Notes: generated by a model not told the origin, from the letters alone. 64,000 bases of DNA from Dehalococcoidia bacterium (GCA_963667765.2 CAXXON010000001.1:1151722-1215721); one strand, 5' to 3'; counted from the first letter of the stretch, positions 592 to 54,148 are shown. Numbers and translations: made by a program.

Positions 592-698
592 AGCGAGGAA
601 TTTTCGCCAACTATATACCGGTTTAACCGGCAACATTGACCCACCCTGGGGAGCCAGTCGGCGACCATTGCCGCACTTCAGTAAAGAGGAGAGCGGCG

Positions 699-2294: not shown

Positions 2295-3058
2295 CCCGAG
2301 TCACCGAACTTACGCCATTGCTCAAGCGGCTCCAGCTGGGGCCTATGGCCGCCACCCTGCCCGAACGCATCGCCCTGGCCCGCCGGGACCAGCTGGACTA
2401 CGCCTCCTTTCTGGAGATCATCCTCTCCGACGAGGTCAACCGCCGCGCCGACCGCCGTCTGGAATTGCGGCTGCGCAACGCGGGCTTCGAGGAGACCTGC
2501 CGCCTGGAGGACTTCGACTGGACGGCCGCCATTACATTGGACCGCCGGCTCCTGGACGCCGTCTTCTCCCTGGAGTTCCTCTCCAAGCACGAACACGTCC
2601 TGCTGGTGGGGCCCGCCGGTGTCGGCAAGACCTTCCTGGCCCAGGCCCTGGGCTACGCTGCGGTCAGGGCCAGCCACACCGTCCGCTTCTGCCACGCCGA
2701 CGACTTCTTCCGGAGCATGACCCAGGCCCGGGTCGACAACTCCGTCGACCGGATCTTCCGTTCCTTTCTCTCCCCGGACCTGCTCATCCTGGATGACCTG
2801 GGTCTCCACCGGCTCACCACCCAGCAGTCGGCCGACCTCTACGAGCTGATCATTGGCAGACATCGGGTCTCCAGCTTCATCATCACCAGCAACCGCAGCG
2901 TCGAGGAATGGCTCAGCCTCTTCGACGATCCCATACTGGGGAACAGCGCCCTGGACCGGCTGGCCAATGCCAGCTTCCAGATCGTCATCGAGGGGGCCAG
3001 CTACCGAGAGAAACTGTCGCCTCACCGGAAACTACTGGGTGACAGGGGAGGTGATTGA
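2291..3058 (+). CDS. istB: IS21-family helper ATPase IstB
   Basis: In-frame part of ORF 1574..3058 starting MTRVTELTPLLKRL. Walker A is GPAGVGKTF and Walker B is LLILDDLG. There is an ATGA overlap with the istA stop. Confidence 0.9.
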   Translation: MTRVTELTPLLKRLQLGPMAATLPERIALARRDQLDYASFLEIILSDEVNRRADRRLELRLRNAGFEETCRLEDFDWTAAITLDRRLLDAVFSLEFLSKHEHVLLVGPAGVGKTFLAQALGYAAVRASHTVRFCHADDFFRSMTQARVDNSVDRIFRSFLSPDLLILDDLGLHRLTTQQSADLYELIIGRHRVSSFIITSNRSVEEWLSLFDDPILGNSALDRLANASFQIVIEGASYREKLSPHRKLLGDRGGD

Positions 3059-3232
3059 CCCTTCGGCTGAAACCTGATAAAAGTCTAAATCACGGCCCCC
3101 AAGGGGTGGGTCAATGACCGCGAAAACCAGTGGTATATAGTTCCCGAAAAACGACAGGAGTATCTGAGCGATGAGGAACTGCTGCTCCGGTCCCTCGCCA
3201 GGGAGGAGGAGCTTCGGCGGACCCTGCGGGAG

Positions 3233-3475
3233 TTGGAGCAGAGCGTATTGGAATGGCAACTCCGGGCATCCGAGCTGGAGCGGGAGCGGGACGAGGCCAG
3301 GGAGTCCGCCGCCACCGCCAACCGGCCTTACTACGAGCTTGAAATGGAGCACCGAAAGGAGGTCGATGCGCACAGGGATACGAAAGAGGCGCTCATGGCA
3401 TCTCGCGTAGGAGCCCTGGTGCTGCTTGTATTGCTGGTGGGCCTCGTTCTCCTGTGGTGGTTCGTGCTGAGGTAA
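3233..3475 (+). CDS. coiled-coil protein with C-terminal transmembrane anchor, probably 5'-truncated by the IS21 insertion
   Basis: ORF-track 80 aa with a charged heptad-like region (ELERERDEARE) and then VGALVLLVLLVGLVLLWWFVL. The reading frame is open upstream to 3089 inside the IS21 end, with no start codon other than TTG 3233. Confidence 0.3.
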   Translation: MEQSVLEWQLRASELERERDEARESAATANRPYYELEMEHRKEVDAHRDTKEALMASRVGALVLLVLLVGLVLLWWFVLR

Positions 3476-3926
3476 GGACGGACTGGTTCCACCATGTCTA
3501 AACCGATGCCAATGTGAGAACTACATTTGGGCGACGATTAAACCATATCGGAATCGTTCCGATTCCTTGTCCCCGGCTTGTATGGGAGAAAGTGGAATTG
3601 GCGGACGGGGCAAAATGCACATCCCACTTTGGCTTTAGTTTAGGATTAGTCGTCGCCCGAACGCGTTCGGGCATTAAGGAAACTCGCCGCATCCGTTCAT
3701 AGGATACTATGAGCCACATAGCGCCTGACCGGGACTGACTTGAAAACACAAAACCGCATTACAGCCAGGAGTTCCAGACTCCGTCGCCTGTTCACTCTGG
3801 GCGTCCTACGTGTAATTGATGGTAGGTTCGGCTTATTCTGGGGCTGCACAGAGTACGGAGGCCAACAATCCTGCGGCTATACCAGAAACATCGTTGAGTG
3901 GCAACAACATCAAGTGAGAGGGGATC

Positions 3927-5234
3927 GTGGCCAACTCTGAACACATCAAGTGGCTCCTCGAAGGCGTCGAGTCGTGGAACGAGCGGCACCAGAACGTTCC
4001 GGGCAAAGGATATCTGTTTACTCCCGATTTTGAGGGAGCGCCTCTGTATTGGACATTTCTCGAAACTGGCAAGCTGGACGGCCGGGGAAGAATCCCCCTG
4101 GCTGGCGTGGACCTTTCTGGTGCCGACCTCACCAAGGCAGACCTGAACTTAGCTGACCTCTCTGGCGCGAACTTGGAACTTGCCACTCTCACCGAATCTA
4201 AACTGTGGCAGGCAGACCTGACCGACGCAAATCTTCATTTTGCTGACCTTACCGGAGCCAACCTGACTGCCTCGGAGCCTTGGAAAGCAGACCTCTACCC
4301 AGCAGTGATAAAGTCGCCGGAGCAACATCCTGACAGGTCGAGACCAGTTACCAACATCAAAGACTTGCTACCGAAGATACAGAGAATCAAGGATTACTAC
4401 GATCCGACGGTCTTCCTCTACTTTCGTGGTGAGTCCGAATGCGGATGGGAATTGCGCCCTTACGTGATGAGAAGCGACCTCGCCGTATATGAGAGTGAAA
4501 TGTTGACGGACCTTGTGTCGCGGCGACCCGAAGAATTTAATGATATGACATCCGTGCTCGCTCAATGGGTTCTGGCCCAGCACCATGGTCTAAAGACACG
4601 TTTCTTGGATGTCACCAGGAATCCTCTGGTTGCTCTGTTCCATGCCTGTGACAATACTGGCCAAGAGGAACAAGACGGGCGTCTTCATGTGTTCGCGGTA
4701 CCGAGGGCGTTGATTAAGACCTTCGATAGTGATGCGATAAGTATAGTCTCAAACGCCGCTAGGTTGTCCCGCTTCCAAAGAGACGCACTTCTGGGCAAAC
4801 ACTTCTCCTTGGGCAACAACAGAATCCATCGGGAAATTGAGCACTCGGAAGCCATGCGCATCCTCTACCAGTTGGTTCGACAAGAAAAACCATATTTTGA
4901 GGAGCGGATTGACCTGAGAGATTTCTACCAGGTCTTTGTCGTCGAGCCGCAGCAGTCCTCTGAGCGTCTTAGGGCACAAGCCGGGGCCTTTCTGGTATCG
5001 GCGTTTCACGAGCGGTTCGAGCGTCAAGAGATTCTGCGGTGGAATGATGGGATTCCAGTCTATGCCCACTACAAGTTGACCATATCCGGTAGGCATATGA
5101 ATCGCATCAAGGAAGACTTGCAACTGCTAAACGTCACGAGGGAGAACCTTTTCCCCGGGCTTGACTCCTCGGCCAAGTCGGTCAGTGATACCTACGATGC
5201 CTTCCTGAAGTTTGATAAGGGAGGACGACCGTAG
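3927..5234 (+). CDS. pentapeptide-repeat + FRG-domain protein
   Basis: The N-terminal segment contains about 12 A(D/N)LXX pentapeptide repeats (GVDLSGADLTKADLNLADLSGANLELATLTESKLWQADLTDANLHFADLTGANL). The C-terminal half has the eponymous FRG motif (FLYFRGESECGWELRPYVMR). GTG start with GAGAGGGGA upstream. Lies in a low-GC patch. Confidence 0.7.
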   Translation: MANSEHIKWLLEGVESWNERHQNVPGKGYLFTPDFEGAPLYWTFLETGKLDGRGRIPLAGVDLSGADLTKADLNLADLSGANLELATLTESKLWQADLTDANLHFADLTGANLTASEPWKADLYPAVIKSPEQHPDRSRPVTNIKDLLPKIQRIKDYYDPTVFLYFRGESECGWELRPYVMRSDLAVYESEMLTDLVSRRPEEFNDMTSVLAQWVLAQHHGLKTRFLDVTRNPLVALFHACDNTGQEEQDGRLHVFAVPRALIKTFDSDAISIVSNAARLSRFQRDALLGKHFSLGNNRIHREIEHSEAMRILYQLVRQEKPYFEERIDLRDFYQVFVVEPQQSSERLRAQAGAFLVSAFHERFERQEILRWNDGIPVYAHYKLTISGRHMNRIKEDLQLLNVTRENLFPGLDSSAKSVSDTYDAFLKFDKGGRP

Positions 5235-5303
5235 GTAGACTACCGCCCCACTAATCACTGAGTCCAAGTAGAGTTGCCTTGACAACGCACCATCGTATGA
5301 TCG

Positions 5304-5555
5304 ATGATGTCAAGGGTAAGACAGCTTATGACCAACCGGCTCATCAACAGGAACACCAAGACGATCACCTTCTCCCTGCCGCCTGACATGGCAGAGCAGG
5401 TGCAGGACGTGATGCGCGACGAGGGTCGCACCATGAGCGAGCTCATCCGGGAGGCCCTTCGCAACTACATGGAGGAGCGGGAGTGGCTTAGGACCATCCG
5501 GTACGAGAGGGTACGCGCTCGCCATGCTGAGCAGGAAGACTCACGAGGAGATTGA
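5304..5555 (+). CDS. ribbon-helix-helix (CopG/Arc-like) protein coupled to LSR rec1
   Basis: KTITFSLPPDMAEQVQDVMRDEGRTMSELIREALRNYMEEREW is a classic RHH beta-strand plus two helices. Paralogs precede every LSR copy in the window. The start may be ATG 5328. Confidence 0.75.
   Translation: MMSRVRQLMTNRLINRNTKTITFSLPPDMAEQVQDVMRDEGRTMSELIREALRNYMEEREWLRTIRYERVRARHAEQEDSRGD
5316..5323 (+). promoter_or_regulatory. GTAAGACA core of the motif shared by all four RHH-LSR modules (partial copy)
   Basis: GGGTAAGACAGCTTATGA. The same GTAAGACA core followed by a TAT-rich hexamer is seen at 8970-8981, 21580-21591 and 54149-54160. Here it lies inside or at the start of the RHH ORF, so its role is unclear. 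Confidence 0.25.
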
Positions 5556-5566
5556 AGGAGGACAAA

Positions 5567-7231
5567 ATGAAGCAACAGTTCCAACCCCTGACCCCGGCGG
5601 CCCTCTACGCCCGGGTGTCCAGCGACCGCCAGGACGTGGACCTTTCCGTGGCTGCCCAGCTTAGAGCACTGCGAGACTACGCCAAGAGCAACGGCTACTC
5701 CGTGGTCCGCGAGTACGTGGACGAGGCCGAGAGCGGCCGCATCGCCGACCGGCCCCAGTTCCGCCAGATGATCGACGAGGGCGGCAAGGCCACGGCTCCG
5801 TTTGAGGTGATTCTTGTCTGGAAATTCAGCAGATTCACCCGCAAGCGGGAACACGCTGTCGCTTTCAAGTCCATGCTCCGGCGCAAGGGCATCCGGGTCG
5901 TCTCCATTACCGAGCACGCCGACGACTCCCCCACCGGCAAGCTGATGGAGGCCATCATCGAGTCGGTGGACGAGTTCTACTCGGAAAATCTTGGCGAAGA
6001 AGTAAAGCGGGGAATGCGGGAGGCCGCCTCTCGCGGCTATTTCCTTGCCTCCAAGGCCCCCTTCGGCTACAACCGCATCAAGGTCAGCGACGGAGTGAAG
6101 GACCGTCCCACCCTGGAAATCGACCCGGCGGCCGCGCCAATAGTCAAGGAGATATTCGAGAGTTCCCGTCGGGGCAACGGGCTCGCCGAAATCTGCAAGG
6201 AACTGAACGGCCAGGGCATCACCAACCGGGGCAAGCGCTGGCAGAAGAACGTGGTCCACTACCTGCTCACCAACGAAGCATACACAGGGACGGCAGTGTG
6301 GGGCGTCAAGAGCAAGGACGAGAAGAACCCGGACCCGGTTCGGGTGGAGAACGCCTGGCCCGCCCTGGTGTCAAGGGAGTTGTTTGACGAGGTGCAGCAG
6401 GGACTCCACCAGCGGGCGCCCACGGTGCAACGGCCCGGACGGGTGGGCAGCCAGTACTTGCTGAGCGGACTGCTCCGCTGCGGGGTGTGCGGCAAGCCCT
6501 ACTCGGCCCAGGGGGCCAAGAGCGGCCGATTCGCCTACTACGTCTGCGCCAGCCTGTTCCGCGAGGGAGCGGGAGCGTGCAGCAACGGGCGATACCTGAA
6601 CGCAACCAAGGTTGAGGACCTGGTAATCGAGAAGGTCAGGGAGCGGATTCTCACCGAGGAGACCATCACCGAGCTGGTGACACTGGTGGCCGAGGAGATC
6701 GACAACCTGGCCGGGGAGGTCAACGGGAGGCTGACCGCAATCAACAGCGAGCTGTCCGACGTGGAGACCCGGTTGGAGAACCTCTACCAGGCCCTGGAGA
6801 CCAAGCAGTTGCCCATCGAGGTGATCTCGCCCCGCATCCTGTCCCTGAAGAGCCGCCAGGACCAGCTTGTGGCGGCGCGGGAGGGGGCCGAGGCCCAGTT
6901 GGAGCAGCGTCGGGCCGAACTGCCCACGTCGAAGGAGATCAAGGGGTACGTGGCGGACTTCCGGGAGTTGTTCCAGGAAGGGACGTTCCCGGAGCGGAAG
7001 GCCCTCATCCGCAACTTCGTGCAGGGCATCGAGGTCGTGGCAGACGAAGCGGTTCTGACGTACACTATCCCCATGCCCCAGGATGGTGTAACGTCGGAAG
7101 CGGCCTCAGTTCTTGATTTTGTCCAGTCAGGCCCACCAGACTTGACGGTAGACAGTACCGGGGCGTCCAGGTATACCTCCTCGGCGTCTTTTCCCCCTAT
7201 TGGACTATCTTGGGGCGTAGGTATTGTGTAA
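5567..7231 (+). CDS. large serine recombinase (rec1)
   Basis: Resolvase catalytic N-terminus AALYARVSSDRQDVDLSVAAQLRAL, then a recombinase domain, a Cys-rich zinc ribbon (CGVCGKPYS...YYVCAS...GAC) and a coiled coil. ATG 5567 is preferred because AAGGAGG lies 6 nt upstream. The last ~25 codons are the antisense image of rec2. Confidence 0.9.
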   Translation: MKQQFQPLTPAALYARVSSDRQDVDLSVAAQLRALRDYAKSNGYSVVREYVDEAESGRIADRPQFRQMIDEGGKATAPFEVILVWKFSRFTRKREHAVAFKSMLRRKGIRVVSITEHADDSPTGKLMEAIIESVDEFYSENLGEEVKRGMREAASRGYFLASKAPFGYNRIKVSDGVKDRPTLEIDPAAAPIVKEIFESSRRGNGLAEICKELNGQGITNRGKRWQKNVVHYLLTNEAYTGTAVWGVKSKDEKNPDPVRVENAWPALVSRELFDEVQQGLHQRAPTVQRPGRVGSQYLLSGLLRCGVCGKPYSAQGAKSGRFAYYVCASLFREGAGACSNGRYLNATKVEDLVIEKVRERILTEETITELVTLVAEEIDNLAGEVNGRLTAINSELSDVETRLENLYQALETKQLPIEVISPRILSLKSRQDQLVAAREGAEAQLEQRRAELPTSKEIKGYVADFRELFQEGTFPERKALIRNFVQGIEVVADEAVLTYTIPMPQDGVTSEAASVLDFVQSGPPDLTVDSTGASRYTSSASFPPIGLSWGVGIV

Positions 7232-8715
7232 CGCACCAGAGCTCCTCCGGGCTGCACCACGATTTCCTTGACGAAAGACTCGATGAAGCCCCGCCGCTCG
7301 GTGAGTTCGCTCTCGTTCAGAAACTTGCTCAGGTCCTCACAATAAGCGGTGATGGTTTCCACATCGTCCAAGACGACCCGCCGCTGGGACAGTATCACCC
7401 TGGCCTCCGCCGCCGTGGCCTCAAGACACTCCTGTCGCTCCCGGTGGTCCTTGATGCGGGGCTTGAAGTCCTCGATGTCCAGGTCGGTGGTCTCCGCCAA
7501 GTTGTAGAGGCGCTCCAGCCGCCGCTTCACGTCAGCCAGTTCCGACTCGGCGGTCTCCAGCCGCTGGCGCTGCTCCCGGGCGATGCCGTCCATCTCCTCG
7601 TCCACCAGCTTGACAAGCTCCCGTATGTTGGACTCGGTGAGCACATTCTCCCGGATCTTGCCGACGACCATCTCCTCAAACCTGCGGGCGTTCAGTCTGG
7701 GACAGTCGCAAGCCCCGCTTCCCCGTTTCATCAATGACTGGCAGACGTAGTAGGCGAACTTGCCTCCCTTGGAGTCCTGGCCGGACATGGCCCGGCGGCA
7801 GGCGCGGCACTTGACCAGCCCGCTGAGCAGGTAGGAGCTGCCAACCCGGCGGGGATGGACCTTCCTGGGGGCGCGGGAACTCATCTGCTTGTTGACCTTG
7901 CGGAACTGCGTCTGGGTGACTACACCGGGGAACGCCTTCTCCACCCTGACCGGGTCGCCCTTGTCCCTCGCGCCTCCGCCCCAGAGCAAAGTGCCGGTGT
8001 AGGCCTCGTTTCTGAGGATGATATGGACGCCGTTCTTGGACCAGGGCCTGCCGGTGGGGTTGGCGATGCCCTCGCCGTTCAGGGTGCGGGTGATCTCCAG
8101 GATGCCTTTCCCCGACTCCGCCAGGTTGAAGATGCGCTGGACCACGGGAGCGGTGTCCGGGTCCGGTTCCAGGGTGGGCCGCTTTTTTCCCCCGTCCTGG
8201 ACCATCAGCTTGCGGTAGCCGTAAGGGACCCGGCTGGCGACCCAGAAGCCCCTTGAGGCGGCCTCGCGCATACCACGCCGAACTTCTTCGGCAAGATTTT
8301 CCGAGTAAAATTCGTCCACGGACTCTATGATGGCCTCCATCAGCTTGCCGGTGGGTGAGTCGTCGGCGTGCTCGGTGATGGAGACGACGCGGATTCCCTT
8401 GCGCCGGAGCATGGACTTGAAAGCCACGGCGTGCTCCCGCTTGCGGGTGAATCTGGAAAACTTCCAGACCAGAATTTCGCCAAAAGGCGATTCCGGCTTG
8501 CTGGCCTCGTCCAGCATCCTGCGGAACTGGGGCCGGTCGGCGATTCTACCGCTCTCGGCCTCGTCGACGTACTCGCGGGCGATGGAGTAGCCGTTGCGCT
8601 CGGCGTAGTCGCGCAGCGCCCGCAGCTGGGCGGCGACTGAGAGGTCCACGTCCTGGCGGTCGCTGGAGACCCGGGCGTAGAGAGCCGCCGGGGTCAACTC
8701 GGTATTCTTACTCAT
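6784..8715 (-). CDS. large serine recombinase (rec2); native C-terminus replaced by read-through antisense to rec1
   Basis: MSKNTELTPAALYARVSSDRQDVDLSVAAQLRAL plus recombinase, zinc-ribbon and coiled-coil regions. Family similarity ends at ...VLSTVKSGGPD (about 7125). The remaining ~113 codons down to 6784 run antisense through rec1. Confidence 0.85.
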   Translation of the reverse strand: MSKNTELTPAALYARVSSDRQDVDLSVAAQLRALRDYAERNGYSIAREYVDEAESGRIADRPQFRRMLDEASKPESPFGEILVWKFSRFTRKREHAVAFKSMLRRKGIRVVSITEHADDSPTGKLMEAIIESVDEFYSENLAEEVRRGMREAASRGFWVASRVPYGYRKLMVQDGGKKRPTLEPDPDTAPVVQRIFNLAESGKGILEITRTLNGEGIANPTGRPWSKNGVHIILRNEAYTGTLLWGGGARDKGDPVRVEKAFPGVVTQTQFRKVNKQMSSRAPRKVHPRRVGSSYLLSGLVKCRACRRAMSGQDSKGGKFAYYVCQSLMKRGSGACDCPRLNARRFEEMVVGKIRENVLTESNIRELVKLVDEEMDGIAREQRQRLETAESELADVKRRLERLYNLAETTDLDIEDFKPRIKDHRERQECLEATAAEARVILSQRRVVLDDVETITAYCEDLSKFLNESELTERRGFIESFVKEIVVQPGGALVRYTIPTPQDSPIGGKDAEEVYLDAPVLSTVKSGGPDWTKSRTEAASDVTPSWGMGIVYVRTASSATTSMPCTKLRMRAFRSGNVPSWNNSRKSATYPLISFDVGSSARRCSNWASAPSRAATSWSWRLFRDRMRGEITSMGNCLVSRAW

Positions 8716-8917
8716 TGCTGTGTCCTCCCTGATTATCTTCCCGTTCAGCTTGTCGGGGGCGCAGCGGTTCCAACCTTGCCTAGCGGCACAGTCCCCCGTC
8801 CTCCATGTATAGGCGCAGAGCCTCGGTCACCAACTCGCTCATGTCGCGGCCCTCTTCCTCCTTCGACCGCTGCACCTCCTCGAACATCTCCGGCGGAAGC
8901 GAAAAGGTAATAGTCAC
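8708..8917 (-). pseudogene. decayed RHH gene upstream of rec2
   Basis: Own translation: (GTG 8917)TITFSLPPEMFEEVQRSKEEEGRDMSELVTEALRLYMEDGGLCR, then an in-frame TAG (8780-8782), then ARLEPLRPRQAEREDNQGGHSNE*. The TAG aligns with a Gln codon of the intact copy at 53887-54117. The conserved upstream ATG (8928-8930) is out of frame by 1 nt. Confidence 0.7.
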
Positions 8918-8981: not shown

Positions 8982-9872
8982 ACATCATCCCATCTCCAGC
9001 TTGCCCGGTCAACGCGGTGCGGTCACCACACCTTCCCCAGAACCGCCTCCAGAGGCCGCGCCGACCCTGCGCCGCCTTCAATTCGTCTACCAACACGGCA
9101 TTGTGCGCCGTTCCTGATCGAGTTGCTCTTGCACCAAGGCCACCAGATACGGTAGGTTTCATTTAGCCTTGTAGTCAGTGGTGCGCCGCGCCTCCGACGT
9201 AATCAGCGCCCAGACCTGCCGGTAAAGGACTGGGTTGGTGAGCCCCTGTCGGCAGGGCAGGGGTATTTGCATTAGCTCTGAGAATACCCTCTGCGGCCTG
9301 AACCGCCGTGCATTGGGTCATCTTCTATGAGGTTTGCGACCCTCAGGGGCCGGCTAGGGCTAATCAGTCCTGATCCTATATTCGTCGATGCGCTGGCGAC
9401 ATTTGGAGGACTGGTCCTTGACTGTGCGGTCATTGACAGTCCTGTAAAATGTTATGCCAATCGAGTGATTGGTCCAGCTGAGTGCTGGTATAACTAAAGA
9501 TTACTCTCACGTTCTACGGCAGGTTTTACATTGCCTACCGGGGAAGGGAATTCACGAGCGCGCCACGGTTGACTTAGCCCGGTCGATGAGCGCTTTCGCA
9601 CAAAACTGCAGCAAGTACTTGCGCCAAATATGGCTTAATCGCTACTCTGTCCTCAGAACACTTCCAGGGTAATCTCACCTGCCTCAATACTGCCTGAGCA
9701 AGGGAACGATTCTCGTATTTTGACTCGGTTGAGTGACCCCATCAAGGCGAACGGCCGCGGCACGGCCCATGGCGATGTTACCTCTACGAGGAAGGTGCCT
9801 TTTGTGGCGGCAATGTGTTGTGGCTTCCCCGGCTGATCCTCTGTAACTATTGGGAACGAAGTGGAGGAAAGG

Positions 9873-10676
9873 ATGAGCACCTTTGAAGAAGGATTCGACG
9901 CGACTGAAAGAGCTGTGGACTCGGTGTTACAGGCATTGGGCGATGTTTCCAAGCTGGCGCGCCAATTACAACGAGACGCGCGGGCGGGCAACATCGCAGC
10001 TATCAGGAGAGGGACCGCCAGGCTGGAGGAAAGCCTGAGCCTGATTCGTCAACAGATCGGCAACGCAACCCAAGCCTGGCCCTTCGCCCCGGAGGAAGAA
10101 CTGGCATACTTGGAAGGCCAATACGCCAGCGAATTGCAGGGAGAAGCCAAAAGGAAGGGACTTCAACTGTTTGAGAGGGACGGCAGGTTGATTGCTCACC
10201 CTTCAGTCCTCCGGGTCTTGCCTGGGGAGCGAGCAGTGCGGATTGACCGGCGCCAAAGTTCATCCATCAGACCGACGAAAATAATGGCAGACCTGGCGAA
10301 GCTGCAAAATACGCCACCTCGTTCCAATCCGCAACAGTTTTTGCAATCCCTTTACGATGCCTACATAGAGTTGAGCGACCGCAGCACGGCCGACCAATTG
10401 AAGTTGGGCCAGCTAGGCCAGTTGGTCCGGCTGGACCGCATCTACAGCTTGTGGACAGGTCGCCCGGGAACTCGAGGAGATTACAGCCAGTTGGACTTCG
10501 CCCGGGACCTGTACAGCCTGGAAAACAGCGGTGTTAATGAAGTTCGTTCAGGAGCTCGGGTGTCCTTCCCGTCATCCACGGGCACCAGGAATCCCAGGGG
10601 AACCATATCCTTCGTAGGACCAAACGGCGAAGCGGTGCTCTACTACGGGATCCAATTCAGTGGAGTCAGCCGATGA
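9873..10676 (+). CDS. hypothetical protein A of the SNF2/BrxD-like operon
   Basis: ORF 9861..10676. ATG 9873 is preceded by GGAGGAAAGG. No motif recognised. N-terminal half is helical; C-terminal half is Gly/Ser/Arg-rich. The stop overlaps the next start (ATGA). Confidence 0.6.
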   Translation: MSTFEEGFDATERAVDSVLQALGDVSKLARQLQRDARAGNIAAIRRGTARLEESLSLIRQQIGNATQAWPFAPEEELAYLEGQYASELQGEAKRKGLQLFERDGRLIAHPSVLRVLPGERAVRIDRRQSSSIRPTKIMADLAKLQNTPPRSNPQQFLQSLYDAYIELSDRSTADQLKLGQLGQLVRLDRIYSLWTGRPGTRGDYSQLDFARDLYSLENSGVNEVRSGARVSFPSSTGTRNPRGTISFVGPNGEAVLYYGIQFSGVSR

Positions 10677-11653
10677 CCAGCACGATTTGTGTCCAGGAAT
10701 GGCTGGAGGTAATCAAGGACGAGTATTTGGATGGATTCGTAAGGGATGGTGGCTCGTCCATCAAGTTTCTCGTACCGGTCAAGGAAGCCCTAGCGCCGTT
10801 GGTAAAGAGCCGTCTTGATGATATTGGTTCCAGCTTGGACTACCTAGTGGTCTGCGTGGATTCGGGAGGTACCCGGGTCCATATGCCCCAGGAGATTTTC
10901 TTCCGCATCGCCCAGCAAGTCGATTGGCGACTTATGGCCCGCAGGGTAATTCTGAGGCTGTGCGAAGACTTGCCCTATCAAACCAATACCATAGACCCTG
11001 TCGCCGATACCCCGATTCTTGGGGCTATCAGTGCGGCAAACGATGTGGAAGAAAGCCAGGTAGCTCTAGACCTGCGCCGCAGGATGCCTAGGGCTGTCAC
11101 TCAAAACCGAGAGATGTCTCGCGATTTCAGACTGGCGATGACCCATCTGTGTCTTGCGGAAATGGACGGAGACGCGGAGAGCCAACAAGGGGAGGAATTG
11201 ATTGAATGGTTAACCGGGCGCAATAGAAGGGTGTCCAACGTCCGGCGATACTCCATTTACAACAGCATCGTCCGTACCAATGCCCGCCATTTCCTGGAAT
11301 CCCTCTTTAACTGGGTGAAGTTCGTTGGATATGCAGGAACACTGATCTTGCTGGACAATAGTCGAGTGACCCTGCGGCGGAATCCGAGAGATGGCCTGTT
11401 CTTTTATTCCCGCCCGGCGACCATGGACCACTATGAACTGATGCGGGAACTCATTGACAGTACGGACCGGTTGGAAGGCGTTCTCATGGTGGTGCTGGCC
11501 GATGAAGACTTCCTGGACCAGGAATTGCGCGGAAAAGGATTCTTTATCTATCAAGCACTCTACGCAAGAATCAGCGATGAAGTCCAGGACCGGAACCAGG
11601 CCAATCCCTTTTCTACTCTGGTCCGGTTGGCGGACACTACTGTCCAGGAGTGA
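10673..11653 (+). CDS. degenerate P-loop NTPase-like protein B (inactive paralog of gene C?)
   Basis: It has DGGSSIKFLVP where a Walker A would sit and AGTLILLDNS where a Walker B would sit. Both flanking genes overlap by 4 nt. Confidence 0.5.
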   Translation: MTSTICVQEWLEVIKDEYLDGFVRDGGSSIKFLVPVKEALAPLVKSRLDDIGSSLDYLVVCVDSGGTRVHMPQEIFFRIAQQVDWRLMARRVILRLCEDLPYQTNTIDPVADTPILGAISAANDVEESQVALDLRRRMPRAVTQNREMSRDFRLAMTHLCLAEMDGDAESQQGEELIEWLTGRNRRVSNVRRYSIYNSIVRTNARHFLESLFNWVKFVGYAGTLILLDNSRVTLRRNPRDGLFFYSRPATMDHYELMRELIDSTDRLEGVLMVVLADEDFLDQELRGKGFFIYQALYARISDEVQDRNQANPFSTLVRLADTTVQE

Positions 11654-12999
11654 TCGGAATGGGAATCGGGGCAACAGAAACATCCTCCAGGTTAGCGAAC
11701 CGCCGCGCTCTGGAAGCCCTGAGAAACGGGGTGCCCAATGGCGACGCAGTGGCGGTCTTGGGATGCAACCAACCTTCCGTTGAGCGTGAGTTCAACTCCA
11801 TGCTCGCCCGCGTTTCCGGCGAATCCGGTAAGGCAGACGCCGGCTTGGGGATGCTGGTTGCAGGGGAGTTTGGCGCTGGCAAGTCTCACTTGCTAAGTTA
11901 CCTGGAAACCCAAGCCCTGCAACGGAACTTCGTCTGCAGCCGGGTGGTCATCAGCAAGGAAACGCCACTGTTCGACGTGGAAAAGGTTTTCAAAGCCGCC
12001 GTAGCCAACGGCAGGGTCCCCGGGATTACCGGCCACATGGTGGAGGAAATTGCCCAGACGCTAGAATACAACTCCCAAAGCTACGCCGATTTTTCCGTGT
12101 GGGCTAACCGGGAGGACAACGGCCTGCATCGCATTCTGCCGGCAACCCTGTTGATTCATGAAAAGGAAACCGACCCCGAGCTACTGAATGAAATCAATTG
12201 GTTCTGGGCCGGTGAGAAGATTCAGCTTAAGAGCGTCCGAGACGGGCTGACTCATATCGGCGAACGCCAAGCCTATTCCTTCCGGGCGCCGATAGCAAGG
12301 AACATGCCCCCGCAAAAGTTGCGGTTCCTCTTGGAACTAATCAAAGCTGCCGGTTACCGCGGTTGGGTTATACTCATGGACGAAATTGAGTTGATCGCCA
12401 ATTACAGCGTTCTCCAGCGCGCCCGGTCCTATGGGGAGTTGACCCGTTGGCTGGGTCAGGCGACCGACGAAAAATACCCGGGCCTGGTAGTCGTTGGAAC
12501 CGTCACCGCCGGTCTTGCCGAATTGGTTCTCGATACCAAGGAAGACCGGGACAAGGCAGCCCCTCGCCTGCGGGCTAGGGGAAGAGACACCGACAATTTG
12601 ATTGCGGCGCGGGCAGAAACCGGGATGCGCCTCATTGAACGAGGGATTCTCCCGCTGGATGATCCTGACGACGCGACCCTTTCCGTCCTGTATGACAAGC
12701 TAAAGGATATTCATTCCCAGGCATACAGCTGGGACGCACCGGACATTGACCGCAGAATCGCTCAGACGAGACGGCCCAGAATCCGCTCCTTCGTCCGGCG
12801 ATGGATTAACGAGTGGGACCTCCGCCGCCTGTATCCTGAATTGGAACCAGACATTGAGGTGACGGAAGTGAAGTTCAGGTACGAGGAAGATACCGCGCTG
12901 GAACACCCTGCTTCGGACGATCCGGGCTCCGCCACCATCAATGAGGCGGACGTATCTGTCCATGGGCCTGAATCCCATCCCGTCCATCGCCAGGATTAA
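11650..12999 (+). CDS. P-loop ATPase, DUF2791/BrxD-like
   Basis: Walker A GEFGAGKSHLLSYLE and Walker B-like GWVILMDEIE. The N-terminal ALEALRNGVPNGDAVAVLG segment and the size (~449 aa) fit what I recall of BrxD-type ATPases. The family call needs an HMM check. Confidence 0.6.
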   Translation: MIGMGIGATETSSRLANRRALEALRNGVPNGDAVAVLGCNQPSVEREFNSMLARVSGESGKADAGLGMLVAGEFGAGKSHLLSYLETQALQRNFVCSRVVISKETPLFDVEKVFKAAVANGRVPGITGHMVEEIAQTLEYNSQSYADFSVWANREDNGLHRILPATLLIHEKETDPELLNEINWFWAGEKIQLKSVRDGLTHIGERQAYSFRAPIARNMPPQKLRFLLELIKAAGYRGWVILMDEIELIANYSVLQRARSYGELTRWLGQATDEKYPGLVVVGTVTAGLAELVLDTKEDRDKAAPRLRARGRDTDNLIAARAETGMRLIERGILPLDDPDDATLSVLYDKLKDIHSQAYSWDAPDIDRRIAQTRRPRIRSFVRRWINEWDLRRLYPELEPDIEVTEVKFRYEEDTALEHPASDDPGSATINEADVSVHGPESHPVHRQD

Positions 13000-13010
13000 G
13001 GACTGCTGCG

Positions 13011-13550
13011 TTGCCCATACCGTTCCGTGACCTGGGCGAGGACGAACCCTCCGGCGTAGCCGGTTTCCTGCGTTTCATTGACGAACCGGATGGAAGGGGA
13101 ATACGCGGCGCTTTATTCATCATGTCGGCTCGCGGAGAACCGATTGAGTTCACTTTCACCAGGATCAACCTTCGCTCCGGAGTTCTGTGGCGGCCGGGAC
13201 ACGCCCGGAGTCGTTCCATATCCGCCTTGACCAAGGCATTGTTTGAGTCAGCCAGCAACCAGGCCTACGTAGTATTTTCGCTGGCGGAGGAAACGCCTCC
13301 AGCGGTATTTTCCGATAACATACGCCCGGAAATCCCCCTGTGCCGCGTGGCATCCAAAGACTCCACGGCTGTGGTCCCATCGGAAAAAGCACAACGATTA
13401 TCCGAGTCCTTAATCCTGTATTGGACTAACGGCTTGCCCCATCCCGGTTCAGTGACAGCCCAGACCATGGAACTCCTTGGGCAGCGCCAACTGCTGATTG
13501 AACCCTTTGAGCGCGCCGCCTTGGGAATTCAGGAGGCGTTCGACTCGTGA
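13011..13550 (+). CDS. hypothetical protein D of the operon (179 aa)
   Basis: TTG start 11 nt after the gene C stop. The stop overlaps the gene E start (GTGA). No recognisable motif. Confidence 0.5.
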   Translation: MPIPFRDLGEDEPSGVAGFLRFIDEPDGRGIRGALFIMSARGEPIEFTFTRINLRSGVLWRPGHARSRSISALTKALFESASNQAYVVFSLAEETPPAVFSDNIRPEIPLCRVASKDSTAVVPSEKAQRLSESLILYWTNGLPHPGSVTAQTMELLGQRQLLIEPFERAALGIQEAFDS

Positions 13551-15340
13551 AGCTGCTGCCAAACTGGCTGACCGGCGCTCCGACGTCGCACCGGCGAGAA
13601 TGGACTCCGTTGCGACGTCAATTGCGGCCGCAGCCAGTTCGCACTGCCCCGCTGCCCCCGATCCAGCAGCCGAGCGCGCGGCATACGCCATGTAGCATTG
13701 ATTTGCCAACTGACGTGGTTTCCCTTTTCCCCGAGGCGGAAGCCGTCCCGGAGACAGTTACATCGGTAGTTCTGGCTCCGGCGGCGGGTGCCCAGGGAGA
13801 TATGCCATCCGGTTCCGGCCCGCGAAGCCGCTCCGAGTCTGCCAACGTCAATAATCCTCCAGCCACAAGCCCACGAACTAGCATATCCCTTGCCTCCCGT
13901 CTGCGGCTGGTTCTCTCACCTTCTCTCAACTCGTTGCTGCCCGGTCCACATTCGGTCTTGTCCTGGGCCGGTGAGTTAATGCCGTTCCAACTGGACGGAG
14001 TCCGAACGCTGATCAGCAGTGACAAGTTGCTGCTGGCCGATGATATGGGGTTAGGTAAGACCATCCAGGTAATCGCGGCGTTGAGGATTCTGATGGTGAT
14101 GCGGGTTTTAGAGACTGCGCTGGTAGTTGCTCCCGCGTCGGTCTTAGACCAATGGCGACAGGAATTGCTCAAGTGGGCACCGGAGCTTAGGGTGATGGTC
14201 ATTCGGGGCGGTCCCGGTGACCGGGCCTGGCAATGGATAAGCGAAGTACATGTCGGGATAGTCAGCTACGACACGCTTAGGGCGGATTTCACCGACAATT
14301 TACAGTCTCCGGTACGAAAGAAGACCTGGGGCGTCCTGGTTGCGGACGAAGCCCAGCGTATCAAGAACCGCAACCCTACCAGCGTTGCCGTAAAGGAACT
14401 GAAGCGTAACCGCTCATGGGCGCTGACGGGCACCCCGCTGGAGAACAATGAAGAAGAGCTGGCGTCCATCATAGAGTTTGTGGACCGCGGGGAACTGACT
14501 TCTCAAGGCCACTACTCCCCCGGTCTCAATCTGCGGGAGAGACATCGTGAATTGCAAATGAGGCGGAAGAAGGCCGATGTGCTTGAAGACCTTCCGCCCA
14601 AGCTGACCACCAAGCTGTCCATCGAACTGCTGCCCAACCAGCGGCGCAGCTATGACCGGGCGGAACGGGAAGGAATCGTATATCTGAGGGAGTTAGGGGC
14701 CGATGTAAGGGTGCAGCACGTTTTGGAGCTGATCCAGCGGCTGAAACAGATTTGCAACGCCGAGCCGGAAACCAGAGAGTCCAGCAAGTTTGAAGATATT
14801 CGGCGAAGAATGGAGTCCCTGTCCCTACAGGGTCACAGGGCCATAGTTTTTTCTCAGTACGTCAGCAACGGGTTTGGTGTTGACGCCATGGCGGGTGTAT
14901 TGCGCGAGTTCGACCCTTTGACATTCACCGGGGAGCTTTCGCCGGAGGACAGGCGAGAGGTCCTACGTCGTTTTCGAAATGGCGACCGGCACAAGGTGCT
15001 GATCGTTTCACTAAGGGCCGGCGGGGTGGGCCTTAACCTCCAGGAAGCCTCCTACGTATTTCACGTTGACCGTTGGTGGAACCCGGCGGTGGAGCGCCAG
15101 GCCGAAGACCGCAGCCATCGTTATGGGCAGTCGCTGCCGGTTCACGTGTTCAAGTATTCCTGCATAGACACGATAGAGGAGCGCATTGACAGGATATTGG
15201 AAAGCAAGCAGGAATTGTTTGACGAACTCGTCGACGATGTAACCATCGACCTAGGTAAGTCTCTGTGTGCTGATGAACTGTTTGGCCTGTTCGGGTTGGA
15301 AGATTTCTGCCAATATCGTGGTAGTCAGGCCGCGTCATAA
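13547..15340 (+). CDS. SNF2-family (SWI2/SNF2) helicase/translocase
   Basis: Motif I LLADDMGLGKTIQ, motif II LVADEAQRIKN, motif III ALTGTPLENN, and C-terminal helicase motifs LRAGGVGLNLQEAS and RWWNPAVERQAEDRSHRYGQ. The first ~130 aa are P/S/R-rich low complexity, so the true start could be downstream. Confidence 0.85.
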   Translation: MKLLPNWLTGAPTSHRREWTPLRRQLRPQPVRTAPLPPIQQPSARHTPCSIDLPTDVVSLFPEAEAVPETVTSVVLAPAAGAQGDMPSGSGPRSRSESANVNNPPATSPRTSISLASRLRLVLSPSLNSLLPGPHSVLSWAGELMPFQLDGVRTLISSDKLLLADDMGLGKTIQVIAALRILMVMRVLETALVVAPASVLDQWRQELLKWAPELRVMVIRGGPGDRAWQWISEVHVGIVSYDTLRADFTDNLQSPVRKKTWGVLVADEAQRIKNRNPTSVAVKELKRNRSWALTGTPLENNEEELASIIEFVDRGELTSQGHYSPGLNLRERHRELQMRRKKADVLEDLPPKLTTKLSIELLPNQRRSYDRAEREGIVYLRELGADVRVQHVLELIQRLKQICNAEPETRESSKFEDIRRRMESLSLQGHRAIVFSQYVSNGFGVDAMAGVLREFDPLTFTGELSPEDRREVLRRFRNGDRHKVLIVSLRAGGVGLNLQEASYVFHVDRWWNPAVERQAEDRSHRYGQSLPVHVFKYSCIDTIEERIDRILESKQELFDELVDDVTIDLGKSLCADELFGLFGLEDFCQYRGSQAAS

Positions 15341-15580
15341 GCCCGAATCCACCGAAAGGCTGGCATTTGGGTTCTTGCATGAGAGATTAGTGGGAGTGGA
15401 GGGTCAATGATTCCGCTCATCCGCCGACGGATAGGGCCAATGGTGGCTCGGAGTGGGCCTGGGGAATCCAGGCTGTGGGACGACGGTCAGCAGAGGACCC
15501 TCGCTGGCCTGGTCGCCGCGAGTGGGGAGAGATCTTCAAATGTTTGGTGGGAGAAACAGTTTCCTTCGGTGGGGATGGCG

Positions 15581-16008: not shown

Positions 16009-16120
16009 CATTCAAGACAGTTGCTTGGGTGCTCCTTGTTTCTGATCGGTTTTCTCTCTCGAAAACCATTATCCCAGATGCAAAGGAGCACTTTCTTACC
16101 CCTCCACCTCCTCGCAAGAC

Positions 16121-16430
16121 TCATCTCTTCGGTGGATTGGAGTTTAGCCGCGACAGCTGTCGCTGGAGATTCAGCAGCCGTCTTTCGTCCCGGCCCTCGC
16201 TCAGTTCGTGGACCAGGCCGGCGATGAGGTTCTCTCGGCGCTGGACATTTTCGCAGTGGGCCAACTCGATGATCAGTGCCTTGTTCACCGAAGGGATGGC
16301 TGGGAAGTCGAAGGTGTCCATATTCTTTACCGCAGGGAATCGGGAGGCGCGGACCCGCCGCTCCACCATGCGCTGTTGCGGTCGATGAGTTCCAGTTCGG
16401 CGAGGCGAAGTTGACCTCGCCCTGCGGGAA
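16121..16430 (-). pseudogene. IstB-like remnant with internal deletion
   Basis: RFPAVKNMDTFDFPAIPSVNKALIIELAHCENVQRRENLIA is fused directly to LVHELSEGRDERRLLNLQRQLSRL. The Walker A segment that normally lies between them is missing. Confidence 0.55.
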
Positions 16431-21049: not shown

Positions 21050-21322
21050 TCAGCGACCTGGCGCTCCTCGCAATCGAGAGGTTGACCTTGAAGTGAGCGG
21101 TGGCTTTGCCCACTCGTCGATCATCCGGCGGAACTGGGGACGGTCGGCGATACGGCCGCTCTCGGCCTCGTCCACGTACTCGCGGGCAACGGAGTAGCCG
21201 TTGCGTTCGGCGTAGTCGCGCAGCGCCCGCAATTGGGCGTGTACGGACAGGTCAACGTCCTGGCGGTCGCTGGAGACCCGGGCGTAGAGGGCCGCCGGTG
21301 TCAAATCAGCATTCCTATTCAT
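21050..21322 (-). pseudogene. truncated large serine recombinase (rec4; N-terminal ~68 codons only)
   Basis: MNRNADLTPAALYARVSSDRQDVDLSVHAQLRALRDYAERNGYSVAREYVDEAESGRIADRPQFRRMIDE, then unrelated sequence and a stop. Confidence 0.8.
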
Positions 21323-21545
21323 CGCTGTGTCCTCCGTCTTCCTCTGACTGATGGGCCTGGCGGGAACGCCGCTGCATCCGCTCCTTGATCCGCCACTCCC
21401 GCTCCTCCATGTATAGGCGGATGACCTCCCTCAGCAACGCGCTCACGCTGCGGTTCTCCTCCCCCGCCACCTGCCGCAGGCCCTGGGCCATCTCCGGGTG
21501 CAGCGAGAAGGTGATGGTCTCGGTGTTCCTGGATAATATGGGGGC
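21315..21545 (-). pseudogene. RHH gene of the truncated rec4 module; no canonical start codon found
   Basis: Own translation ...TETITFSLHPEMAQGLRQVAGEENRSVSALLREVIRLYMEEREWRIKERMQRRSRQAHQSEEDGGHSDE*. The stop overlaps the rec4 ATG. The frame opens right after a TAG, with no ATG/GTG/TTG before the beta-strand. Confidence 0.5.
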
Positions 21546-22016: not shown

Positions 22017-24074
22017 TTATGCAACCGGGTACAACGAGGCCAGGGAACGCCGGTCCAGGGAATGCGGCGGCGGCAGTATCCAAGCCTCGCCCAGGATGCC
22101 CCGTTCCGCCAGGGTCTCCGCGTTGGAGGTGATCACGTCCAGTCCCTCCGTCCCGTCGGCTATGTCCAGGAAGGCGCTCTCGCTGTCCGAGGTCTCGAGG
22201 ACGAACAGCACCTGGGGAGCCTGTCCCCCGTGGTCCCGCCTGGCCCAGCCTGAGCCGAGGTAGCGCTGGTAGGACGCCAGACGCTGGGGGATGCGCTTGG
22301 GAGTGGTGGCCCGGCGCTCGAACTCCAGCAGAAAGGGCAGCCAACAGCCCTGGTACTCCAGGGTGAACGAGGCGTCGGGATGTATCACGTAATTGGTCCC
22401 CCGGCATCGGTAGCCGATGCTGGAGCGGTGGGTGGGCAGCAGGTCGAGGAGGTCGTGGTCCGGGGAGCGGGCCACCTCGGCGGTCAGGGCGGCGGCGAAT
22501 CCGGTTACGCCTCCGTGGTGGCGCATCTGCGAGGCCAAGGCGCGCAGGGCGCTACCGGCGTAGGCCCGGGAGTTGGAGACGGCGGGCTGGGCGGTCCAGC
22601 GGTCCAGCGTGAGTCCCACGGCGGCCCGGTCCCGGCGGGACAGGCAGGTCAGCCCCCGGTCGGTGAGCATCAGTAGGGATCCGTCCTCCCGCACCAGATC
22701 GTGCTGCCGTAGTGAGCGCAGCACCTGGTTGACCCGGCGCAGGGTGACGCCGCCCATCAGCCCGGCCAGCTGCTCCCGGGTGCACAGCGGCCAGGCGCCC
22801 AGCAGGTCCAGGGCCTGCTTCCCGGCGCGGGTCAGTTGGGTAGCCGGGGCCAAAGCCAGCTGACGGGCCGGTCCCGGCATGGATGCCTGCACGTCGGAGG
22901 GATAGAGGGCGTCAGCGTCGGGCCTGGGGTCGTCGCGCAGGGACTTGTAGGACGACTCCAGCAGGCGTTCCGCCCACGCCAGGATGCCCGGCAGGGAGGT
23001 ATCGGGGGAGATTTCCACCGGCGGGTCCTCGCCCAGGCCGCCCCCGCACTGCTGCCATACCACGCCGGCGTGGTCTCCGGCCAGCAGCTCACCCTCGGTG
23101 GCGACAAAGGTCCGGCGGTGCTCCGTGGGGTCGCCCAGGGAACGGACGGCCCGGCGGGTGGCCTGGTCGGCGTGGGTCAGCACCAGGGTGATGAAGGGCC
23201 TCTCGCTGGCTGGGAGACGCTCGATGCTCCGTAGTCGGTAGCGCAGGTTGGAACCGGGCAGGGCCGGACCCTGGCGGATCAAGCAAATGGTGCGTCCTCC
23301 GGACAGTGTGAGCAGCAGGTCGTAGGGGCCCCTGCGGTAGTGGTCCACCCGCACGGGTTTATCGTGCGGGTCGGCGTCGGCGATCATGGCGGCGATGCGG
23401 TAGAGCACGGCCACCGCGTCCAGCCGCTCGGCCAGCAGCCGGAACCACTGCCGGGACAGCGGGTAGGCCCGCAGCATGTGCTCGCGGCCCTGGGTGGCGG
23501 CGCCTGCGGCAATTACGCCCTGCTCCGTGGGGAAGTAGCGGCGCTGGGGACGGGAGCCCAGGGCGCCCAGGTTGTGGGATACGGAGTCCACCAGACCGCG
23601 CTCTGCCAGCTTGTCCAGCCGTTCGCGGAGAGTGGATGCGGGAACACGCCCGAGGCGGGCCAGCTCGTCGACGGTGGTCAGGGGCGCGGCGCACAGCAAC
23701 AGCAGCCCGTCCTCCAAGCCGTCGCGCAGGGGGCGCAGGGCCGGGTCGGGACGCAGGCCCTCCAGGTCGATGATGAGTTCCAGCGTGGCCGCCTCGATCT
23801 CCCGGACGCTCTTTCCCACGGAGTTCAGGACGGCGGCGGGCACGGCACGCCCGGTGTGGCCTCGCTCCAGGAAACGCCATAGGGTATGACGAGATACCCC
23901 CAGGGCCTCCGCGGTCTTCCCCTGCCCGTGCCGTCGTTGGTGGGCGCGCACGTAGTCTCCAGTGGCGTTGGTCAGGGCCTTGTTGTTCCTCGCCGCGTGT
24001 GCCGCCGGCTCCGGCGGTGCCGGTTTTGTTATGGTCAAAGCATTTCCTCCTTGGGCGACTGTCCAACGCTCCAT
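22017..24074 (-). CDS. replication-relaxation family protein with N-terminal HTH/winged-helix repeats
   Basis: Paralog of 60995-62632 (shared blocks LDAVAVLYRIA, RRY.PT, DA.F...). The C-terminal part, HPDASFTLEYQGCWLPFLLEFERRATTPKR, is the pattern I associate with Replic_Relax proteins of conjugative/mobilisable elements. Confidence 0.6.
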   Translation of the reverse strand: MERWTVAQGGNALTITKPAPPEPAAHAARNNKALTNATGDYVRAHQRRHGQGKTAEALGVSRHTLWRFLERGHTGRAVPAAVLNSVGKSVREIEAATLELIIDLEGLRPDPALRPLRDGLEDGLLLLCAAPLTTVDELARLGRVPASTLRERLDKLAERGLVDSVSHNLGALGSRPQRRYFPTEQGVIAAGAATQGREHMLRAYPLSRQWFRLLAERLDAVAVLYRIAAMIADADPHDKPVRVDHYRRGPYDLLLTLSGGRTICLIRQGPALPGSNLRYRLRSIERLPASERPFITLVLTHADQATRRAVRSLGDPTEHRRTFVATEGELLAGDHAGVVWQQCGGGLGEDPPVEISPDTSLPGILAWAERLLESSYKSLRDDPRPDADALYPSDVQASMPGPARQLALAPATQLTRAGKQALDLLGAWPLCTREQLAGLMGGVTLRRVNQVLRSLRQHDLVREDGSLLMLTDRGLTCLSRRDRAAVGLTLDRWTAQPAVSNSRAYAGSALRALASQMRHHGGVTGFAAALTAEVARSPDHDLLDLLPTHRSSIGYRCRGTNYVIHPDASFTLEYQGCWLPFLLEFERRATTPKRIPQRLASYQRYLGSGWARRDHGGQAPQVLFVLETSDSESAFLDIADGTEGLDVITSNAETLAERGILGEAWILPPPHSLDRRSLASLYPVA

Positions 24075-42944: not shown

Positions 42945-42946
42945 AT

Positions 42947-44704: not shown

Positions 44705-44761
44705 AACATGCCTCTCTCTGCCTGGTCCGGCTGTTTTGGATCATGACCTGGCTGACATGGG

Positions 44762-50215: not shown

Positions 50216-50216
<1 letters not shown>
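48756..50216 (-). CDS. csb2: Csb2 (Cas5/Cas6-like fusion of type I-G)
   Basis: MIAIGIRYLTGWSMAT...RPEWPPHPDRIFMALADAH is the characteristic Csb2/GSU0054-family N-terminus. Confidence 0.8.
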
Positions 50217-51412
<1,196 letters not shown>

Positions 51413-54117: not shown

Positions 54118-54148
54118 GTTCTCTCTTTTTGCCAGCTGTGATAATAGG

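Follow-up and report, generated by a model that had tools for sequence, protein, structure and literature searches.

A conserved five-gene cassette of Dehalococcoidia with two BrxC/BrxD-family ATPases, a predicted Endonuclease V-like protein and an SNF2 motor: a candidate undescribed defence system

Introduction

Shango is a defence system composed of the TerB-domain protein SngA, the ATPase SngB and the helicase SngC, with no methylase or obvious nuclease. In type 2 bacteriophage exclusion (BREX), a role in loading or activating the helicase on target DNA has been proposed for the ATPase of the BrxD-BrxHI dyad (PMC12839542), and in Hma an SNF2 protein fused to a nuclease domain confers defence, the nuclease domain of HmaA being required (PMC11232893). 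Here we describe a cassette of five genes, named A to E, located at positions 9873-15340 of a 64,000-nucleotide stretch of DNA from a Dehalococcoidia bacterium (GCA_963667765.2, CAXXON010000001.1:1151722-1215721), the whole of which is referred to as the window. The cassette combines two ATPases of the family to which BrxD belongs with an SNF2 protein and two proteins of new families, and its gene order is kept in bacteria of at least two phyla. We propose, with a probability of about one half, that it represents an undescribed, horizontally mobile system directed against mobile genetic elements such as phages and plasmids.

Results

Organisation and conservation of the cassette

The locus is formed by five compactly packed open reading frames (ORFs) on the same strand:
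9873-10676, + strand: gene A, 267 aa, ATG start
10673-11653, + strand: gene B, 326 aa
11650-12999, + strand: gene C, 449 aa
13011-13550, + strand: gene D, 179 aa, TTG start
13547-15340, + strand: gene E, 597 aa

A preliminary description of this DNA had reported these ORFs with one ATGA junction, two GTGA junctions and an 11-nt gap, and all of its coordinates were reproduced. Genes A and B overlap at ATGA 10673-10676, B and C at GTGA 11650-11653, and D and E at GTGA 13547-13550, while the TAA of gene C (12997-12999) is separated by 11 nt from the TTG of gene D at 13011. The most plausible start of gene A is ATG 9873, with a GGAGG ribosome-binding site directly 5' of it. For gene C an alternative start exists at ATG 11659, nine bases past the GTG, with GGAG 11647-11650 as ribosome-binding site. 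In many orthologous loci gene C starts 10-20 nt past the end of gene B, so the B/C overlap is not conserved and the tight linkage is. The proposal that the five genes constitute one translationally coupled unit is thus retained as regards their contiguity and their common order across Chloroflexota, a Peptococcaceae genome and metagenome contigs, and qualified as regards the B/C overlap. At the D/E junction (13545-13550) gene E is read in the -1 frame of gene D at the D stop codon (TCG TGA / GTG A); no slippery heptamer is visible there, nor was any evidence of programmed frameshifting seen. All five genes are under purifying selection and contain invariant motifs.

The order A-B-C-D-E was found at all 21 loci recovered with gene A from metagenome-assembled genomes (MAGs) of Dehalococcoidia/SAR202, and also in a Peptococcaceae MAG, at 31-49% identity, and in a further locus (L026) lying between insertion sequence (IS) elements. 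Among the 22 metagenome contigs returned with at least 5.7 kb past the start of A, the complete order was present in 20 and A-B-C-E in the remaining two. The check for synteny in other genomes proposed in the preliminary description has therefore given a positive answer: chance falls far short of explaining why 21 Dehalococcoidia loci and unrelated metagenome contigs share one five-gene order. Most occurrences of the cassette are in Chloroflexota that have not been cultured and in communities of sediment, soil and sponges. The metagenome contigs belong to a distant clade of A, for which the scan, carried out with a 14-sequence subset of the alignment, gave at least 582 confirmed hits with one peptide pattern.

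In a second clade A-B-C occurs without D-E, at two conserved chromosomal positions between housekeeping genes, and what comes just after C varies: there may be no further gene, a TIR protein with PemK, genes of unknown type, or an AAA_14/DUF4143 ATPase. These loci indicate that A-B-C is the core of the cassette and that D-E is its usual but non-obligatory partner.

In two of the A-B-C-only loci, L027 (13090-14387) and L033 (12094-13721), A-B-C is directly followed by a gene for a CAP12/Pycsar-type TIR protein and by one for the toxin PemK; the TIR protein of L027 has a weak MazE-like C-terminus, and locus L022 occupies the same chromosomal site without the pair. The pair may represent a different output of A-B-C, or else a toxin-antitoxin module that was inserted independently. 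We did not retain it as evidence of an alternative effector, since L027 and L033 share one site in one lineage and so represent a single event. In two other loci of this type, L028 (10801-11749) and likewise L029, two ORFs with 232 and 98 aa take the place of an intact gene B, which suggests a frameshift or a pseudogene.

The ATPase pair B and C

Domain matches of A-E were obtained with the model libraries of Pfam, PADLOC-DB v2, NCBIfam 20.0 and PHROGs. Both B and C match the Pfam family PF10923 (BrxC_BrxD) above its gathering threshold of 22.2 bits, C with 79.4 bits (E 3.3e-22) and B with 48 bits (E 1.2e-12, residues 125-322), in agreement with the DUF2791/BrxD-style layout earlier recognised in C by eye. 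The Walker A motif GEFGAGKSH (K78) and the Walker B residues D244/E245 previously noted in C are invariant in 25 orthologs, and the corresponding patterns G[ED]FG[AST]GKSH and hhhhDE[IL]E occur without exception across about 25 orthologs. With these motifs intact, C is predicted to be an active ORC/Cdc6-type AAA+ ATPase of the BrxC/BrxD family. A profile search of the sequences in the PDB found no link between C and a solved structure.

Gene B had been interpreted as a dead paralog of C. Its orthologs, about 25 in number, keep GG[ST][SA]xKF and hhLL[DN][NDT] at the respective positions and have neither GK[ST] nor the catalytic Glu. There are 48 invariant columns among them, which indicates that B is under selection as a conserved partner and is not a decaying gene. 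Thus, B is probably a non-catalytic AAA+ partner with a degenerate P-loop and without the Walker B Glu. The direct comparison of the B and C profiles with hhalign gave a probability of 29% and aligned the Walker B region alone; since this similarity is weak, the paralogy is founded on the shared Pfam family membership, and in that form the interpretation holds.

Protein D, the SNF2 protein E and their fusion

Gene E is matched in Pfam by SNF2-rel_dom (7e-44, 150 bits) and Helicase_C (6e-19, 69 bits), and the full set of motifs is intact: GLGKT(168), DEAQ(267), TGTP(294), GGVGLNL(492) and QAEDRSHRYGQ(518). The N-terminal region rich in Pro, Ser and Arg, which had been estimated at about 130 aa, comprises residues 1-135 (13547-13951), in which Pro, Ser, Arg and Thr add up to 45%. 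Residues 136-597 form a minimal two-lobe SNF2 core, with which the protein ends. The mean pairwise identity among orthologs is 41% in the tail and 77% in the core. The closest solved relative is the Rad54-like core of Sulfolobus SSO1653 (1z63, E 1.2e-57), a double-stranded DNA translocase, and the alignment spans the whole two-lobe core of E. Unlike SSO1653, E has the 135-aa variable and disordered-looking N-terminal tail and is encoded together with, or fused to, D.

No match to gene D was found in any of the four libraries, and similarity to solved structures was not detectable at the level of sequence, either by the profile search of PDB sequences or by hhalign to Endonuclease V (EndoV). 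The AlphaFold2 model of D, calculated with 41 homologs, has a mean predicted local distance difference test score (pLDDT) of 85.6 and a predicted template modelling score (pTM) of 0.83. In a Foldseek search of the PDB with this model the top six matches were all EndoV structures, with E-values from 1e-6 to 2e-5, a probability of 1.0 and template modelling (TM) scores of 0.5-0.63, followed by the PIWI domains of prokaryotic Argonaute (pAgo)/SPARDA proteins and by the C-terminal half of UvrC. Accordingly modelled, D has an RNase H-type, EndoV/PIWI-like fold. The hhalign match between D and the Escherichia coli EndoV is statistically non-significant; we discarded it as evidence of homology and kept its register as a guide only. 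In that register Asp35 of EndoV falls on R21 of D, Glu89 on a variable residue and Asp103 on L91, and the conserved L-W60-R-P-G of D lies opposite the PYIP wedge of EndoV. R21 is nearly invariant, and the sole invariant acidic residues of D are E94, E164 and E175. Compared with the EndoV/PIWI/UvrC clade, therefore, D is shorter, with 179 aa, and shows Arg, a variable residue and Leu at the catalytic positions as read in this non-significant register. D probably lacks the EndoV catalytic carboxylates and is probably catalytically inactive, and from the model a role as a DNA-recognition domain is more probable than one as a nuclease. The mean pairwise identity of D is 64%, dropping to 41-44% at loci where A-C hold 62-69%, and by this measure D is the least conserved folded component of the cassette.

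In locus L032 A-B-C is followed by a single 691-aa protein in which D is fused, as the N-terminal part, to the SNF2 protein. Residues 1-173 of the fusion match the D profile in hhalign with a probability of 99.4% (E 4.6e-21), and the remainder is 60% identical to the core of E. This fusion is direct genomic evidence that D and E form one unit, and the variable tail of E corresponds to the linker of the fused form.

Gene A

Gene A, like gene D, has no match in Pfam, PADLOC, NCBIfam or PHROGs. In its AlphaFold2 model (pLDDT 88) the N-terminus forms a long helical hairpin, after which come alpha/beta domains. Foldseek searches of this model against the PDB and BFVD returned nothing at E<0.001, and nothing was obtained in a profile search of PDB sequences. 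The structure predictions recommended in the preliminary description thus had different results for the two proteins that it could not match to anything known: A keeps that status, with a confident model and neither a domain nor a fold match, and D no longer does, owing to its EndoV/PIWI-like model and its fusion to E in L032.

A profile search defined an A family of 862 clusters at 50% identity with E<=1e-3, 273 of them with E<=1e-30, nearly all of whose members have 250-290 aa and are unnamed. In the loci viewed, A always stands directly upstream of B-C and is the marker gene of the system. A founds a large unnamed family, and A and D are two new protein families. Gene A was found neither in PLSDB (72,556 plasmid records) nor in IMG/VR (2.9 million viral contigs).

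Comparison with described systems

No model of PADLOC-DB v2, NCBIfam 20.0 or Pfam covers A or D, these libraries hold no named system for the cassette, and no description of this gene set was found in the literature searched, so the initial failure to assign a named system persists after the hidden Markov model (HMM) checks. In PADLOC the best name was BrxD for both ATPases and ZorD/DpdE for the SNF2 protein, and the scores of the operon proteins against the NCBIfam equivalogs are 5- to 15-fold under the cut-offs. Neither a methylase nor a nuclease motif, none of which had been visible on inspection, was found in the operon by Pfam, PADLOC or NCBIfam.

As regards BREX, C scored 69 bits and B 42 bits with the BrxD equivalog (NF033438), below its cut-off of 350 bits. 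BrxC/PglY is a protein of about 1200 aa, of which C (449 aa) gives faint P-loop matches only (E 0.03-0.07). PglZ is found neither among the matches of A-E nor among the called genes of the conserved loci, and a methyltransferase (PglX) or BrxP is missing from the operon as well as from the conserved five-gene loci. In BREX, PglZ has roughly 850 aa. The only ORFs of the window with about 650 aa or more are a recombinase, the Replic_Relax protein and Cas3g, and since all three are explained, no PglX, BrxC, DrmA or PglZ is present in the window. The nearest functional analogy to the cassette would nevertheless be the BrxD-BrxHI dyad of type 2 BREX, in which a stand-alone ORC/Cdc6-type AAA+ protein of PF10923 is likewise tightly linked to a superfamily 2 helicase. 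The differences are that the cassette contains two paralogous ATPases, one of them apparently inactive, that its helicase is of the SNF2 type and that of BREX Ski2/Lhr-like, that PglW, PglX, BrxC/PglY and PglZ are all missing, and that A and D have no BREX counterpart.

With respect to the systems that employ SNF2 proteins, the best PADLOC match of E is ZorD (2.9e-74), yet E reaches 134 bits with the ZorD equivalog, whose cut-off is 1500, and no match to ZorA or ZorB was found in the operon. The restriction-modification-associated defence island system (DISARM) is represented by DrmD matches to the SNF2 core of E only (68-71 bits for cut-offs of 610-950), and DrmA and DrmB (DUF1998) occur neither in the operon nor in the conserved loci. 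The absence of the defining partners of BREX, DISARM and Zorya, as originally reported, is therefore sustained for the operon and the conserved loci, and the ORF sizes leave no room for PglX, BrxC, DrmA or PglZ in the window. DpdE gave 75.7 bits for a cut-off of 500, with no other Dpd protein, DpdA included, being matched. Hma is made up of HmaA, an SNF2 protein with a PD-(D/E)xK nuclease at its C-terminus, the methylase HmaB and the ATPase HmaC; HmaA is partially matched by E (5e-19), and the operon has no methylase. The helicases ZorD, HmaA and BrxHII and those of the BR systems resemble D-E in that an SNF2 motor is joined, by fusion or adjacency, to a domain with a nuclease fold. In ZorD and HmaA this partner is Mrr or PD-(D/E)xK, whereas in the cassette it is EndoV/PIWI-like by prediction, N-terminal when fused and probably devoid of catalytic residues; in addition, the cassette has neither ZorA/B/C nor the HmaB methylase.

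Shango shares with the cassette the logic of a small protein, an ATPase and a helicase. However, the cassette has five genes, with a second ATPase and the EndoV-like protein; gene A has no TerB or other Pfam match that would relate it to SngA, and the weak PADLOC match of C to SngB (3e-9) is confined to the P-loop (residues 69-105). On its defining features, taken from gene content and profile scores, the cassette lies outside BREX, Zorya, DISARM, Dpd, Shango and Hma.

Genomic setting and mobility

The following features surround the cassette in the window:
636-3058: IS21-type istA/istB, complete pair, at the left end of the window
3927-5234: ORF with pentapeptide repeats and an FRG domain, between the IS21 copy and the recombinases
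5552-7231, + strand: large serine recombinase, convergent with and overlapping the 6784-8715 gene
6784-8715, - strand: large serine recombinase, convergent with and overlapping the 5552-7231 gene
9370-9872, + strand: conserved, non-coding leader/promoter region upstream of gene A
22017-24074: 685-aa protein with Replic_Relax and helix-turn-helix, right of the island

The cassette belongs to a block of low GC content at about 3-21 kb of the window, the cassette block itself having values of 0.556-0.585 as against 0.65-0.72 across large parts of the window. The serine recombinase pair shares an inverted repeat of 569 nt with 81% identity, and further copies of the recombinase 5' end/upstream region are present at about 21.1-21.5 kb and 53.9-54.2 kb (21104-21372; 52263-54207). 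Copies of a direct repeat, at 8506-8765 and 21113-21372, bracket the operon. Locus L014 also has a recombinase pair of this kind 5' of the operon. On the right flank an IstB fragment and repeats represent IS21 debris. Together, the IS21 pair, the Replic_Relax gene and the low-GC block suggest an integrated element. The flanks of the cassette are not syntenic between species, and among the 144 ORFs of the Dehalococcoidia flanks transposases are the commonest genes, with at least 18 family matches, all other families being singletons. The early picture of the operon as cargo of an island is borne out by the low GC content of the block, by what lies on either side of it (serine recombinases to the left, IS21 debris to the right and a Replic_Relax gene nearby) and by the non-syntenic, transposase-rich flanks. 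The presence of two copies in one MAG (L016 and L021) was rejected as evidence of mobility because they are collinear over 20 kb with 90-95% nucleotide identity; variation between strains, or duplication of a large segment, is the probable origin of the two copies.

The leader shows about 80-85% nucleotide identity to the regions 5' of A in loci L008 and L001. A 67-aa ORF within it was dismissed as a coding gene on account of a frameshifting 1-nt indel among relatives, and no RNA element was detected there, either as an Rfam match or as a folding signal (z = -0.73). To the right of gene E, a 116-nt segment (16025-16140) recurs in both orientations, often in several copies, with 77-88% identity in loci L003-L007, L009, L011 and L020, and looks like a miniature inverted-repeat transposable element (MITE) or an IS end.

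Defence genes near the cassette

Single Dehalococcoidia loci have in their flanks, by PADLOC, a cyclase of the cyclic oligonucleotide-based antiphage signalling system (CBASS; 1e-94), SspH (2.5e-57), a TIR protein and others. Recurrent in the metagenome flanks (136 ORFs) are subunits of type I restriction-modification (R-M) systems and further DNA methyltransferases, along with AAA_21/SMC_N ATPases and ResIII helicases. Locus L032, which has MazE/PIN, a TIR_2 protein and an HsdR-like gene as neighbours, is a clear defence island. Just 5' of its A-B-C-fusion, at 2334-8685, there is a co-directional trio of a DUF6361 protein, a 604-aa weakly PLD-like protein and a 1102-aa Helicase_C protein, which may be another defence system. 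The window itself contains a CRISPR array at 39882-42094, with about 30 copies of the 36-nt repeat GCTTCAATGGGGCCACCGCCTTTCGGCGATGGAAAG, and ORFs matching type I-G cas genes (Cas3g 1.5e-242, Cas1g 5e-187, Cas5/6g and Cas8g). On size grounds the latter are probably the - strand ORFs beside the array, at about 42900-51400. One window ORF outside 9800-15400 has a strong PADLOC match to the candidate system PDC-S15 (3.7e-70). The richness of the flanks in defence genes is supportive of a defence role and is not decisive.

Discussion

We propose that A, together with a hetero-oligomer of B as regulatory, non-catalytic subunit and C as catalytic subunit, would constitute a core recognising invading or aberrant DNA. 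ATP turnover by C would then recruit, load or activate the D-E module, in which an EndoV-like DNA-binding (wedge) domain would be coupled to an SNF2 translocase of double-stranded DNA. This module may disrupt the replication of the invader or pass its DNA to a nuclease. In this scheme we infer from the data above that the function is immunity, which parts act as sensor/loader and which as effector, and all protein contacts except the one between D and E.

Several observations weigh against a mobile system of defence. Among A-E no effector chemistry could be recognised, be it an active nuclease, a methyltransferase, a toxin or another kind; the catalytic carboxylates of EndoV seem to be missing from D, and for A there is no fold match. 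The A-B-C-only loci sit at two fixed sites among housekeeping genes, a placement that looks more like stable inheritance than like island cargo. Furthermore, the tallies of defence genes in the flanks are raw counts that consist in part of promiscuous HMM matches (mad2/3, AriA-like ATPases).

A bolder form of the defence proposal, which we advance only tentatively and consider doubtful, is that A-B-C is a general-purpose ORC-like DNA-sensing core that extends well outside the present cassette and can be wired to varied outputs. The five-gene output would be an immune effector that neither cuts nor modifies DNA, in which the inactivated EndoV wedge (D) would place the SNF2 motor (E) on invader DNA and the motor would strip or stall the replication or packaging machinery. 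If true, this would amount to a new mode of immunity in prokaryotes, and a family of at least 860 protein clusters would gain a function.

Among the explanations that dispense with defence, we regard as unlikely that the cassette is a DNA-repair or replication-rescue module, in which D would read damaged or deaminated bases or branched DNA, E would remodel stalled complexes in the manner of RapA, Mfd or HARP-type motors, and A-B-C would be an ORC-like loader at lesions. In favour of such a module, the nearest structures of D are EndoV and the C-terminal half of UvrC, E is a generic minimal SNF2 translocase, the cassette has no toxin or modification enzyme, and in two lineages the A-B-C-only loci keep conserved positions among housekeeping genes. 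However, the distribution is patchy, with flanks that differ between species, transposases, recombinases and R-M/CRISPR genes lie nearby, and the window has the low-GC signature of an island. It would also be unusual for repair enzymes that D is the fastest-evolving folded part and the tail of E hypervariable, and D appears to be without the catalytic residues of EndoV.

We find it harder still to accept that the cassette serves its carrier element, in maintenance, replication, partition or competition with other elements, instead of protecting the host. ORC/Cdc6-type AAA+ proteins include replication initiators, and the Replic_Relax gene at 22017-24074, the large serine recombinase pair beside the cassette in the window and in L014, and the IS elements found on its flanks in L026 as well as in many Dehalococcoidia loci would all fit with such a function. 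Yet the carrier genes differ at each locus, so that no single element type travels with the cassette, the neighbours at many loci are only metabolic, and A is absent from the plasmid and viral collections searched. The idea of a decayed or orphaned, non-functional remnant, left when a BREX type 2/6-like or Zorya/DISARM-like locus lost its core genes, is close to refuted: PF10923 and SNF2 proteins are indeed accessory genes of such systems and give the best PADLOC names here, but dozens of independent loci have the same five genes and no core of BREX, Zorya or DISARM, purifying selection acts on all five, whose motifs are invariant, and the equivalog scores are far under the cut-offs.

Returning to a role against mobile genetic elements, the lack of an apparent active nuclease, methylase or toxin, together with the fusion of an EndoV-like domain to an SNF2 motor, points to an as yet undescribed mechanism. 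If the cassette protects against phages or plasmids, it would isolate in a small operon the pairing of ATPase and helicase that type 2 BREX also has, which may ease its biochemistry, and it would be a widespread addition to the catalogue of defence systems, coming from sources that current catalogues sample poorly.

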